NCBI RefSeq assembly: GCF_044324785.1
Contig: NZ_CP172127.1
DNA: 64,000 nt
Direction: 5' to 3' (one strand)
DNA from: Escherichia coli
GTDB taxonomy: Bacteria; Pseudomonadota; Gammaproteobacteria; Enterobacterales; Enterobacteriaceae
Within the stretch, counting starts at the first letter, position 1. Each line of letters begins with the position of its first letter. A program made the position numbers and the translations under genes. Under the pieces are notes generated by a model, which saw nothing but the letters and a program-made list of their open reading frames with translations, was not told the origin of the DNA and did not search any database. Below are positions 2,268 to 52,619 of the stretch, in pieces.

Positions 2268-3200
2268 ATGAGGAACGGAATGATGAATAATAAAGTCAGC
2301 TTCACTAACAGCAATAATCCAACCATCTCTTTGTCTGCAGTGATCTATTTCCCTCCAAAATTTGATGAAACCCGTCAGTATCCGGCAATTGTGGTATCTC
2401 ACCCAGGTGGGGGCGTTAAAGAGCAAACGGCCGGAACCTATGCCGAAAAACTGGCGGAAAAGGGATTTGTCACTATTGCTTATGACGCATCTTATCAAGG
2501 TGAAAGCGGCGGCGAGCCGCGTCAGTTAGAAAACCCATACATTCGTACTGAAGACGTCAGTGCCGTGATTGATTACCTGACAACGCTTTCTTATGTCGAC
2601 AATACCCGAATTGGTGCGATGGGAATTTGTGCCGGTGCAGGATATACAGCCAATGCTGCAATTCAGGATCGCCGCATCAAGGCCATCGGTACTGTTAGTG
2701 CGGTCAATATTGGTTCGATGTTCCGTAATGGTTGGGAAAACAATGTGAAATCTATTGATGCCCTACCATACGTTGACGCGGGTTCAAACGCCCGAACCAG
2801 CGATATTAGCAGCGGAGAATACGCCACTATGCCACTGGCACCAATGAAGGAGTCCGATGCGCCGAACGAAGAACTGCGTCAGGCCTGGGAGTATTACCAC
2901 ACCCCTCGCGCGCAGTATCCAACAGCACCGGGTTACGCTACTTTGCGCAGCCTTAACCAGATTATTACCTATGATGCTTACCATATGGCGGAAGTGTACC
3001 TGACTCAGCCGATACAGATTGTGGCGGGCAGCCAGGCAGGGAGCAAATGGATGAGTGACGACCTGTACGATCGAGCATCAAGCCAGGATAAACGCTATCA
3101 CATTGTTGAAGGCGCAAACCATATGGATCTTTATGACGGCAAAGCCTATGTGGCTGAAGCAATTTCAGTATTAGCTCCGTTCTTTGAGGAAACTCTGTAA
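2268..3200 (+). CDS. ycjY: Alpha/beta-fold hydrolase with Cys in the nucleophile elbow (GICAGAG), YcjY-like
   Basis: 310 aa; G-x-C-x-G nucleophile elbow; first gene of the operon divergent from pgrR. Confidence 0.75.
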   Translation: MRNGMMNNKVSFTNSNNPTISLSAVIYFPPKFDETRQYPAIVVSHPGGGVKEQTAGTYAEKLAEKGFVTIAYDASYQGESGGEPRQLENPYIRTEDVSAVIDYLTTLSYVDNTRIGAMGICAGAGYTANAAIQDRRIKAIGTVSAVNIGSMFRNGWENNVKSIDALPYVDAGSNARTSDISSGEYATMPLAPMKESDAPNEELRQAWEYYHTPRAQYPTAPGYATLRSLNQIITYDAYHMAEVYLTQPIQIVAGSQAGSKWMSDDLYDRASSQDKRYHIVEGANHMDLYDGKAYVAEAISVLAPFFEETL

Positions 3201-20535: not shown

Positions 20536-21093
20536 TTAAAACGTGGTGGGCGTATGGGCGCTGATAATTCGGCAAATACCTGCCGACGTATTACTGAAAC
20601 TGTGCGGGATGCCGGTATTAATGGCATAACTTTGCCCCGCGACGAGGTGGTAATCCTGACCATTAATCGTCAGAACAATTTCACCTTCCAGTACAGTGCC
20701 TATTTCCTCACCCTGATGCTTAATTCTTTCCCCAGTGGTTGTGCCCGGCTGGTAAGTTTCAAAGATCATCGCCAGCGTGCGATTCGGGTTACCGTTATGA
20801 ACCAGCTTCATTGACACACCCTGACTGCCCATCTCAATTAAGTCGTCCTGATTAATGACGACCTGCGGCTCATCAGGTTTTTCCGGCTCGGAAAAGAATT
20901 CCGAGAGTGACAGACCATACACCTTCAGCAGCTTTTGCAGCGTACTTATGGCAGGGCTGACTTTATCTTGTTCTATCGTACTGATAGCACTGTGAGTCAG
21001 CCCGGAGAGTTCGGCGGCACGACGTTGTGAAAGCCCCTGCTGCTGGCGGATTTCCGACAAGCGTTTTCCTGGCGCCAGTCCCTCATCACTCAT
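20536..21093 (-). CDS. puuR: HTH/cupin repressor PuuR
   Basis: 185 aa. Confidence 0.9.
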   Translation of the reverse strand: MSDEGLAPGKRLSEIRQQQGLSQRRAAELSGLTHSAISTIEQDKVSPAISTLQKLLKVYGLSLSEFFSEPEKPDEPQVVINQDDLIEMGSQGVSMKLVHNGNPNRTLAMIFETYQPGTTTGERIKHQGEEIGTVLEGEIVLTINGQDYHLVAGQSYAINTGIPHSFSNTSAGICRIISAHTPTTF

Positions 21094-21119: not shown

Positions 21120-21884
21120 TCAGAGTCGCTGTTTTTCAGCGATATGGTGCTGACAAGCGGTGATAAAGCCCTCGAACAATATACGCGAAAGCGCGTACTC
21201 GCTACTGTTCCATTCCGGGTGCCACTGTACGCCCAGCGCAAAAGGATGATTGATGACGCTAACCGCCTCAACTAAGCCATCCGGCGAGCGAGCTTCAACA
21301 CGCAACCGTGGGCTAACGACCTTCGCCCCTTGTCCATGCAGAGAGTTTACCCAAAAGTTGCTACATTCAGGTAACAACGCAGACAGTAATCCCCCCTCTT
21401 CAACCAGAACTTCATGCGACGGCGCATATTGCTGCTCCACCGGCAGTTCGGGATCTTCCCGATGTTCCAGCAATTCAGGCTGTTCGCACAGCTTGCGATG
21501 CAACGAACCACCGGTTGCCACCACCAGTTCCTGTAAACCCCGGCAGATGGCGAAAATGGGGATGCGCCTTTCGAGTGCGGCATTAATTAACGCCATGCTC
21601 AGAAGATCACGCCCAGGATCGGCGTCAGGCTCATCGCCGTTTTCACCATATAGGTGCGGCTGCACATTGCTGGGACTACCAGGAAGATAAATACCATCGA
21701 GTTTCGGCAAAAGTTGTTCAAGTAATGACGGTTCCGCCAGCGCATGTGGCAGCGCAATTGGCAAGCCGCCTGCGTGGATGATGGCATTCAGGTACTTTTC
21801 TTGCAGAGTCTGGGTCGCATGACCCTTAAGCCTGTTCCTGCACATTACGACACCGATAACCGGATTGTTCATTATATTTTCCAT
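21120..21884 (-). CDS. puuD: Gamma-glutamyl-GABA hydrolase
   Basis: 254 aa from MENIMNNPVIGVV. Confidence 0.9.
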   Translation of the reverse strand: MENIMNNPVIGVVMCRNRLKGHATQTLQEKYLNAIIHAGGLPIALPHALAEPSLLEQLLPKLDGIYLPGSPSNVQPHLYGENGDEPDADPGRDLLSMALINAALERRIPIFAICRGLQELVVATGGSLHRKLCEQPELLEHREDPELPVEQQYAPSHEVLVEEGGLLSALLPECSNFWVNSLHGQGAKVVSPRLRVEARSPDGLVEAVSVINHPFALGVQWHPEWNSSEYALSRILFEGFITACQHHIAEKQRL

Positions 21885-22095
21885 GCTCAATCTCACAAAG
21901 TGGACTAAATTATCGCCATTACTGCGCTTTAAATGACCTTTATGTTCAATATTTTTTCAATCTAGCAGTGGGTTTTCATTTTTGCAAACTCAATTTAACA
22001 TTTGACAAACATTTAGTTTGCATACAGATTCGAATGGTGGTCATTATATTTTACGCTTTGATAACGAGCGGAAAACAAACCAAAGGCGAAGAATC

Positions 22096-23514
22096 ATGGA
22101 AACCAATATCGTTGAAGTAGAGAACTTTGTTCAGCAGTCAGAAGAGAGGCGGGGTAGCGCCTTTACGCAGGAAGTGAAACGCTACCTGGAGCGCTACCCG
22201 AATACGCAATATGTTGATGTTTTACTTACCGATTTAAATGGTTGCTTCCGTGGAAAACGTATTCCTGTTTCAAGCCTGAAGAAGCTCGAGAAAGGGTGTT
22301 ATTTCCCGGCCTCGGTATTTGCAATGGATATTCTGGGCAACGTAGTAGAAGAAGCGGGTCTGGGTCAGGAAATGGGCGAACCGGATCGTACCTGTGTTCC
22401 TGTTCTCGGTTCCTTAACCCCTTCTGCCGCCGATCCAGAGTTTATCGGTCAGATGCTCCTGACCATGGTCGATGAAGATGGCGCTCCCTTTGACGTTGAG
22501 CCGCGGAACGTTCTTAACCGCCTGTGGCAGCAGCTGCGCCAGCGCGGATTGTTCCCGGTCGTAGCGGTAGAGCTGGAGTTCTATTTACTGGATCGCCAGC
22601 GCGACGCTGAAGGGTATCTGCAACCGCCCTGCGCGCCTGGCACCGATGACCGCAATACACAAAGCCAGGTTTACTCCGTTGATAACCTCAACCACTTCGC
22701 CGACGTGCTCAATGATATTGATGAGCTGGCGCAGTTACAGCTGATTCCGGCAGATGGCGCGGTCGCCGAGGCCTCGCCAGGTCAGTTTGAAATCAATCTT
22801 TACCATACCGATAACGTGCTGGAAGCTTGCGATGATGCGCTGGCACTAAAACGCCTGGTGCGTCTGATGGCAGAAAAGCATAAGATGCACGCCACTTTTA
22901 TGGCGAAGCCGTATGAAGAGCACGCGGGCAGCGGGATGCATATCCATATCAGTATGCAAAATAATCGTGGCGAGAACGTGCTTTCTGACGCGGAAGGCGA
23001 AGATTCGCCGCTGCTGAAAAAGATGCTCGCCGGGATGATTGACCTGATGCCGTCATCAATGGCGTTGCTGGCACCAAACGTGAACTCGTATCGCCGCTTC
23101 CAGCCGGGAATGTATGTGCCGACGCAGGCGTCGTGGGGCCATAACAACCGCACCGTTGCCCTGCGTATTCCGTGCGGCGATCGTCATAATCACCGCGTGG
23201 AATATCGCGTGGCGGGTGCCGATGCCAACCCATATCTGGTGATGGCAGCGATTTTTGCCGGTATTTTGCATGGCCTTGATAACGAGCTGCCGTTGCAGGA
23301 AGAAGTCGAAGGCAACGGGCTGGAACAGGAAGGCTTACCCTTCCCGATTCGCCAGAGCGATGCCCTGGGTGAGTTTATCGAGAATGATCACCTGCGCCGC
23401 TATTTAGGCGAACGCTTCTGCCATGTCTATCACGCCTGTAAAAATGATGAGCTGTTGCAGTTTGAGCGCCTCATCACAGAAACAGAAATTGAGTGGATGT
23501 TGAAAAACGCGTAA
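22096..23514 (+). CDS. puuA: Glutamate-putrescine ligase
   Basis: 472 aa from METNIVEVENF; glutamine-synthetase fold. Confidence 0.9.
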   Translation: METNIVEVENFVQQSEERRGSAFTQEVKRYLERYPNTQYVDVLLTDLNGCFRGKRIPVSSLKKLEKGCYFPASVFAMDILGNVVEEAGLGQEMGEPDRTCVPVLGSLTPSAADPEFIGQMLLTMVDEDGAPFDVEPRNVLNRLWQQLRQRGLFPVVAVELEFYLLDRQRDAEGYLQPPCAPGTDDRNTQSQVYSVDNLNHFADVLNDIDELAQLQLIPADGAVAEASPGQFEINLYHTDNVLEACDDALALKRLVRLMAEKHKMHATFMAKPYEEHAGSGMHIHISMQNNRGENVLSDAEGEDSPLLKKMLAGMIDLMPSSMALLAPNVNSYRRFQPGMYVPTQASWGHNNRTVALRIPCGDRHNHRVEYRVAGADANPYLVMAAIFAGILHGLDNELPLQEEVEGNGLEQEGLPFPIRQSDALGEFIENDHLRRYLGERFCHVYHACKNDELLQFERLITETEIEWMLKNA

Positions 23515-51988: not shown

Positions 51989-52367
51989 ATTCACCTTACC
52001 TAATTTGATTCTTCCAGGAATGCGTCGCACGTTGATAAACCTTCCACTGGCAACGAGTTACCGATATGGACTCGTTCTCTGTGGTTATCAACCCCTTGTC
52101 GTGACTCTGTTCACGAAAATTCAGGTGACTGAGTTAACAGGTCTTGGCCTACAGGCGCTATAGCACGACGGAATTTTGGTCGAATGTCAAGCAAATCTAT
52201 TGCCAGATTGACGAAAGCGTCACACTGTACCTGATAAAATCCGATACGCAACTTTATTAGCATGCAAAATCCAAAGTTGCCAGTAAGGCGCTCTTGCCAC
52301 CAGCGTGGTATATTTGTCTGCAAGCCATGCCTGGCGTAGACTAATGTCCTTGTTTAAGGAGTAAATA

Positions 52368-52619
52368 ATGAACAAAGAGACACAACCCATCGACCGCGAG
52401 ACGCTGTTGAAAGAGGCCAACAAAATCATTCGTGAGCATGAGGATACGCTCGCAGGGATTGAAGCCACCGGCGTCACGCAGCGTAATGGCGTGCTAGTAT
52501 TTACCGGCGACTACTTTTTAGATGAACAAGGATTGCCAACAGCCAAAAGCACCGCGGTGTTTAATATGTTCAAACACCTGGCCCATGTGCTTTCAGAAAA
52601 ATATCATCTGGTTGATTAA
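52368..52619 (+). CDS. yciN: Small protein YciN
   Basis: 83 aa. Confidence 0.85.

Follow-up and report, generated by a model that had tools for sequence, protein, structure and literature searches.

The puuD-puuA locus

The window analysed here is a 64,000-nucleotide stretch of Escherichia coli DNA that includes two divergently transcribed sets of puu genes. On the minus strand lies puuD (21120..21884), encoding gamma-glutamyl-GABA hydrolase (Pfam Peptidase_C26). It is followed by the repressor gene puuR (20536..21093), encoding 185 amino acids and second in the puuDRCBE operon, downstream of which are puuC, puuB and puuE. On the plus strand puuA (22096..23514) encodes glutamate-putrescine ligase (Pfam Gln-synt_C), and puuP lies downstream of it. 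All gene coordinates are those of RefSeq features of strain N3 mapped onto the window. Because puuD and puuA bound it, the gap between them runs exactly from 21885 to 22095; it is 211 bp long, with a GC content of 0.29-0.36. An earlier note, made from this DNA without database searches, had described an AT-rich divergent puuD/puuA control region here; its position and character are correct, and the length of 210 bp that it gave is one short. The product of puuR comprises an HTH_3 domain (residues 13-66, Pfam 6e-15) and a Cupin_2 domain (residues 111-178, Pfam 6e-19). A search of the PDB with the PuuR sequence returned generic XRE-type HTH matches only, and no structure of PuuR.

The 330 bp at 21825-22154 are 100% identical to those of K-12 MG1655, and thus the published work on K-12 is directly applicable; K-12 coordinates are converted as 1383004 minus the window coordinate. 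An 801-bp query spanning the site is matched at 95% identity or more in 4369 of 5426 complete E. coli genomes, with puuD and puuA annotated. In E. coli K-12, PuuR is reported to bind and repress at the puuA-puuD divergent region (Nemoto et al. 2012, J Bacteriol 194:3437). According to PMC9951944, which cites that work, the spacer between puuA and puuD is bound by PuuR and has four DNA-binding motifs, and putrescine releases PuuR.

A conserved 20-bp motif at four positions

A search for repeats reveals a 15-19-mer resembling TGTTCATTATATTTT in three direct copies, at 21866, 21943 and 22038. The reverse complement of this element, AAAATATAATGAACA, is reportedly the 15-bp asymmetric PuuR consensus of Nemoto et al. 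2012. The three copies, designated below S1, S4 and S3, differ from this 15-mer at 0, 1 and 2 positions, respectively, and there is no other match with two or fewer mismatches in the 64 kb. A full-text search of the literature with the operator sequences found no relevant paper.

How general is the repeated element? A scan of species-representative genomes for PuuR gives 80 loci across the Enterobacterales, in 58 of which puuD and puuA are divergent. Most of these have a gap that differs from 212 bp by only a few bp, and in Serratia it is about 240 bp. The orthologous regions were aligned and reduced to 28 that are non-redundant. Conservation in the alignment is concentrated in the repeat copies and in blocks at 21901-21913, 21958-21972 and the central 21996-22015. 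Iterative refinement of a position weight matrix (PWM) converges from any of four block seeds on a single 20-bp motif, approximately aTGGACAAwATATTkaACrr. It is matched at four homologous positions (S1 to S4) in 25-28 of the 28 non-redundant species, and accompanies puuR orthologues in 27 further non-redundant species. Motif discovery across the puu regions, which the earlier note had proposed as a check, yields a 20-bp motif at four sites, one of them outside the gap.

For scanning the whole 64-kb window we used a PWM built from the 27 non-Escherichia orthologous regions only. The top three scores in the 64 kb are those of S1, S3 and S4 (26.5, 22.8 and 18.7 bits), compared with a maximum of 13.0 ± 3.1 bits in random 64-kb sequences. 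It should be borne in mind that orthologous sites are not independent samples, so that conservation itself accounts for part of the score at a homologous position. Chance is nevertheless far from explaining the repeat. Elsewhere in the window the sequence AAGGAGTAAATAATGAACAA at 52356-52375 scores 17.3 bits, near the score of S4; it comprises the start codon of yciN together with its ribosome-binding site (N3 mapping). Since it exceeds the maximum of random 64-kb sequences by about 1.4 sd, this is probably a chance resemblance to the start-codon-containing S1. Within the gap a degenerate fourth member of the repeat family (TTTTCATTTTTGCAA, 21972-21987) was rejected, at -2.5 bits and with poor conservation.

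S1 (ATGGAAAATATAATGAACAA, 21865..21884, minus strand) has the highest score in the 64 kb and is an exact match to AAAATATAATGAACA; its 20 bp fall outside the gap that the earlier note covered. S2 (GTGGACTAAATTATCGCCAT, 21900..21919, plus strand) is the weakest in E. coli at 11.8 bits. S3 (ATTGAAAAAATATTGAACAT, 21942..21961, minus strand) is conserved, and S4 (GTGGTCATTATATTTTACGC, 22037..22056, plus strand) is found in 28 of 28 species. The corresponding K-12 positions (NC_000913.3) are 1361120-1361139 for S1, 1361085-1361104 for S2, 1361043-1361062 for S3 and 1360948-1360967 for S4. On the evidence of sequence and conservation we regard S1 to S4 as candidate PuuR operators, their agreement with the original DNase I footprints being indirect.

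The earlier note took the repeated unit to be an ATGACC/TGGTCAT-like element. One part of this stands, since TGGTCAT (22038-22044) is the left half of S4. The other does not, in that ATGACC (21933-21938) lies between sites and shows no conservation across the orthologous regions. There are exactly two copies of the ATGACC/GGTCAT hexamer in the gap (21933 on the plus strand and 22039 on the minus strand), and when one mismatch is allowed the count is not above that in shuffled sequences (P=0.36). A reading of ATGACC (21933) and GTTCA (21944) as an inverted pair of half sites was dropped, as the pair is unconserved. The two strings that the earlier note quoted are both present, at 21931-21953 and 22033-22051, and overlap S3 by 12 nt and S4 by 15 of 20 nt; S1 and S2 were missed. 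In summary, that observation is correct in outline, errs over the exact core motif, gives two of the four sites, and concerns what was already known.

When the PWM is compared with its own reverse complement at offset 0, the correlation is r=0.61, and shuffling of the columns gives 0.10 ± 0.17 (P=0.002). This self-correlation points to an operator that is an imperfect palindrome centred on A|T, of which TGGnCAA is the stronger half; the symmetry falls short at positions 16-17, in the weaker right half. The predicted recognition element is therefore a ~20-bp AT-centred imperfect palindrome rather than an ATGACC/TGGTCAT repeat. The consensus attributed to Nemoto et al. 2012 is by comparison a 15-bp asymmetric sequence. 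A recent paper (PMC12645834, 2025) describes the PuuR site as non-palindromic, and a dimer as having no evidence in its support. The dyad reading of the operator conflicts with that statement; it would be a minor refinement, and is not a new kind of system.

Could the repeats simply be promoter elements of the TATAAT-like -10 kind, or generic similarity between AT-rich sequences, with no specific binding of protein? The gap is AT-rich, TATAAT occurs on the minus strand within S1 and S4, and the sole sigma-70-like hit in our scan falls on S1 (TTGTGA-16-TATAAT, 21898-21871, minus strand, 10/12). Yet transcription from that hit would start inside puuD, S1 in most other species is AATATATTTGAC, without TATAAT, and the number of promoter-scan hits is not in excess of shuffled sequences (1 versus 1.2). 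We have therefore rejected the hit as a promoter; it is probably a by-product of the operator core. Moreover, the motif scores are greatly above the expectation for AT-rich random sequence (P<0.003 for 14 bits or more), and the most conserved motif positions are the G/C-containing flanks (TGG..C / G..C). We find this explanation scarcely credible, and specific binding by PuuR much the better reading of the motif.

Probable back-to-back promoters and the ArcA site

In the middle of the gap is the binding site of a further regulator, one that was absent from the earlier note. Park et al. 2013 (PLoS Genet, PMC3798270) describe a four-direct-repeat ArcA site that extends from -70 to -28 relative to the mapped transcription start site (TSS) of puuDR. 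The 43 bp at 21981..22023 are its counterpart in the window, the reverse complement being identical to the ArcA-P site in their Table S4. The ArcA ChIP peak of PMC3798270 is centred at about 22008-22017, and in an arcA mutant puuA is derepressed 15.3-fold and puuDR 10.6-fold (PMC3798270). Given the ArcA site at -70 to -28, the puuD TSS can be placed at 21953 on the minus strand (K-12 NC_000913.3 1361051, back-calculated from Tables S4 and S6 of Park et al.), inside S3. With respect to this start S3 extends from -8 to +12, S2 from +35 to +54 and S1 from +70 to +89.

A putative extended -10 element for puuD, TGcTAGATT, lies at 21959..21967 (minus strand), 6 nt upstream of the TSS and in a block (AATCTAGCA) that is at least 80% conserved. 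From sequence and conservation the likely -35 element is TTGCAA at 21982..21987 on the same strand, with a 17-nt spacer. For puuA a perfect TTGACA at 22002..22007 (plus strand) is the probable -35 element. It is TTGACA in 19 of the 28 non-redundant regions, and TTGAAA, TTGCAA or TTGCGA in the remaining nine (those of Franconibacter, Serratia and Hafnia, one of Erwinia and that of Pantoea). The predicted -10 element is CAGATT (22025..22030, plus strand), again with a 17-nt spacer; the hexamer varies, with A2 and T6 invariant in the 28 species. We infer that the puuA TSS would fall at about 22037 (K-12 1360967), at S4, so that S4 would occupy approximately +1 to +20 of this promoter. Park et al. 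list 'no TSS' for puuA (PMC3798270). The -35 elements of puuD and puuA are 15-20 bp apart, and both are within the ArcA site.

There is a 12-nt inverted repeat at 21983-21994 and 22011-22022 (TGCAAACTCAAT / ATTTAGTTTGCA), with 92% complementarity and a 16-nt gap, that forms the outer arms of the ArcA site. Its left arm holds the puuD -35 element, and its gap holds the TTGACA of puuA. This mirror arrangement suggests that the two promoters form a symmetric unit. In some Erwinia and Pantoea regions (L050, L061 and L063) the segment aligned with 21942-21972 has neither a scoring S3 nor the puuD extended -10 block (CAATCTAGCAG), while S1 and S4 are kept. The lack of both suggests another arrangement of the puuD promoter in these genera.

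According to PMC9397018, Partridge et al. 2006 reported FNR sites in the gap. The best matches to the FNR consensus (TTGAT-N4-ATCAA) are weak, namely TTGACAAACATTTA (22002-22015) and TTGATAACGAGCGG (22058-22071), each with mismatches at 3 of 10 positions. Consensus scans of the region for sigma-54, NtrC and CRP also gave weak matches only.

The presence of ArcA raises the question of whether the repeated AT-rich elements are themselves ArcA-P boxes (TGTTAA-like direct repeats), making the region mainly an aerobic/anaerobic switch. ArcA binds the gap and strongly represses both operons (PMC3798270), TGTTCA(A/T)T, which makes up the right half of the motif, is similar to the ArcA half-site TGTTA, and S1, S3 and S4 each match TGTTAANNNNNTGTTA with three mismatches. 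However, the ArcA site and the centre of the ChIP peak are confined to 21981-22023, away from S1 to S4 (PMC3798270), and the other half of the motif, TGGAC, is not ArcA-like. Within the 6.5-kb loci scanned the 20-bp motif adjoins puuR orthologues only. Furthermore, PuuR alone represses reporter fragments of the region in Corynebacterium glutamicum, a distant heterologous host (PMC9951944). We therefore consider it highly unlikely that the repeats are ArcA boxes. ArcA-P is a separate regulator; its operator takes up the middle of the gap, with the PuuR sites on either side and no overlap between them.

Four probable operators and the control of the region by PuuR

Reporter fragments made for PMC9951944 allow the contributions of the sites to be compared. 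These fragments exhibit a dose response to putrescine. We have mapped the primers of PMC9951944 onto the window, and paired each fragment with the PuuR repression ratio given there. PpuuDF (21847-22095) contains S1 to S4 and is repressed 36.2-fold by PuuR, and PpuuDS (21885-22028), with S2 and S3, 6.9-fold; thus loss of S1 and S4 makes repression of the puuD promoter about five-fold weaker. PpuuAF (21860-22095) also contains S1 to S4 and is repressed 2.2-fold, compared with 1.95-fold for PpuuAS (about 21973-22095), which has S4 only. Both full-length fragments reach into puuD by design, so that S1 is included. The map of four sites fits the published number of motifs, the fragment boundaries and the repression ratios. 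The presence of multiple PuuR operators in this control region, as the earlier note had proposed, is supported by the agreement between the identity to K-12, the four motifs of PMC9951944, the four comparative sites and the reporter ratios.

Are all four sites operators? It might be argued that only S3 and S4 function as such, with S1 conserved as coding sequence and S2 being either a chance match or an element of the leader RNA. S1 covers the ATG of puuD and codons 1-7, and constraint on the protein therefore contributes to its conservation. Yet codons 3-5 beneath S1 have no synonymous variation among the 28 species (AAT in 24 of 24, the rare ATA in 28 of 28 and TTT in 22 of 22), while codons 8-13 vary freely, and the isoleucine codon 10 is never ATA. 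The freezing of these synonymous positions argues for a constraint at the level of the nucleotides on top of that of coding. S2 has a low score in E. coli (11.2 bits when an AT-rich background is used, expected by chance about 0.01-0.02 times per region), and rests there mainly on conservation. In most other species, however, a site of 14-22 bits stands at the constant distance of 34-35 bp from S1; the homologous position is occupied in 27 of the 28 non-redundant species, and the core TGGACTAAATTAT is at least 80% conserved. The reduction in repression on removing S1 and S4, and the count of four motifs in PMC9951944, also speak against restricting function to two sites. We judge the two-operator reading to be unlikely, and regard all four sites as probable operators.

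A further conserved stretch in puuD lies beyond S1. At codons 16-20 (21825-21839), AGG AAC AGG CTT AAG, the nucleotides are almost invariant in the 28 species, and arginine at codons 16 and 18 is encoded almost without exception by the rare AGG or AGA. The PuuR PWM gives no hit over these codons.

The separation of the sites is also conserved. In the window the centre-to-centre spacing from S1 through S2 and S3 to S4 is 35/42/95 bp, and it is 34-35 / 41-42 / 95-96 bp in 25 of 30 regions of the Enterobacterales; the distance from S4 to the ATG of puuA is variable, ranging from 54 to 89 bp. This spacing puts S2, S3 and S4 about 4, 9 and 13 helical turns apart, and such phasing is consistent with cooperative binding or looping. 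In Buttiauxella sp. A111 (L030) a 10-bp insertion (TTGCTCAATA) near 21941, just upstream of S3, resembles a partial duplication of S3. With it S2 and S3 are 51 instead of 41 bp apart, an increase of exactly one turn of the helix. Several Serratia species (L058, L059, L062, L064-L066, L068 and L070-L075; at about 2606-3001 in each) have a second puuR immediately divergent from a puuA paralogue, and puuD is absent there. The gap of about 395 bp has the same operator layout and an apparent remnant of the start of puuD, ATGGGCAATATATTT. In the 6.5-kb loci containing this second copy, PWM hits of more than 10 bits are found solely in the puuA-puuR gap, with a spacing of 96/77.

All this leads to a reading in which we have high confidence, that the region is the known divergent control region of puuAP and puuDRCBE, repressed by PuuR and released by putrescine, with ArcA-P over both -35 elements. 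The gene identities, the four motif copies, their spacing and the identity to K-12 come from the present analysis, and PuuR binding, release by putrescine, the ArcA site and the puuD TSS from the literature. The puuD and puuA promoters would stand back to back in the middle of the gap. PuuR, with its XRE-type HTH and cupin domains and encoded two genes downstream, would bind the four ~20-bp AT-centred imperfect palindromes. On S3, over the puuD start, and on S4, at or just after the probable puuA start, it should block RNA polymerase; S2 in the puuD leader and S1 at the start codon may add to repression by acting as roadblocks, or through cooperative binding or looping. Putrescine would free PuuR so that both operons fire. 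Since puuR is inside one of the operons that it controls, the circuit would be autoregulated. Under anaerobic conditions ArcA-P on the central 43 bp would shut both promoters independently of PuuR. What we infer in this scheme is the puuA promoter with its TSS, the occlusion, the looping and the binding of a dimer. We offer only tentatively, as something that may well prove otherwise, the fuller proposal in which a dimer binds a dyad-symmetric site of 20 bp, a phased S2-S4 loop encloses both promoters and the ArcA site, and S1 has frozen the rare ATA codon of puuD across the Enterobacterales.

Repression of divergent promoters from multiple operators by XRE/Cro-type HTH dimers is familiar from lambda CI at OR and OL. 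Like lambda CI, PuuR has a Cro/C1-type HTH, and its operators appear to be dyad symmetric, several in number, and conserved in spacing in helical phase. Unlike lambda CI, PuuR has a cupin sensor domain responsive to a small molecule, and its cooperativity and looping are conjectural.

Control of puuA and puuD by PuuR is already known, and has been textbook knowledge since 2012. Compared with the K-12 puuA-puuD region of Nemoto et al. 2012, the sequence, the genes, the count of four motifs and the relief by putrescine are the same; this is the same locus, with no biological difference. The region has already been used in putrescine biosensors, and the practical value of the analysis lies in an exact, conservation-backed map of the four candidate operators, both promoters and the ArcA site. 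The possible dyad symmetry of the operators, their helical phasing and the operator embedded at the puuD start codon could provide small refinements for the design of biosensor promoters.
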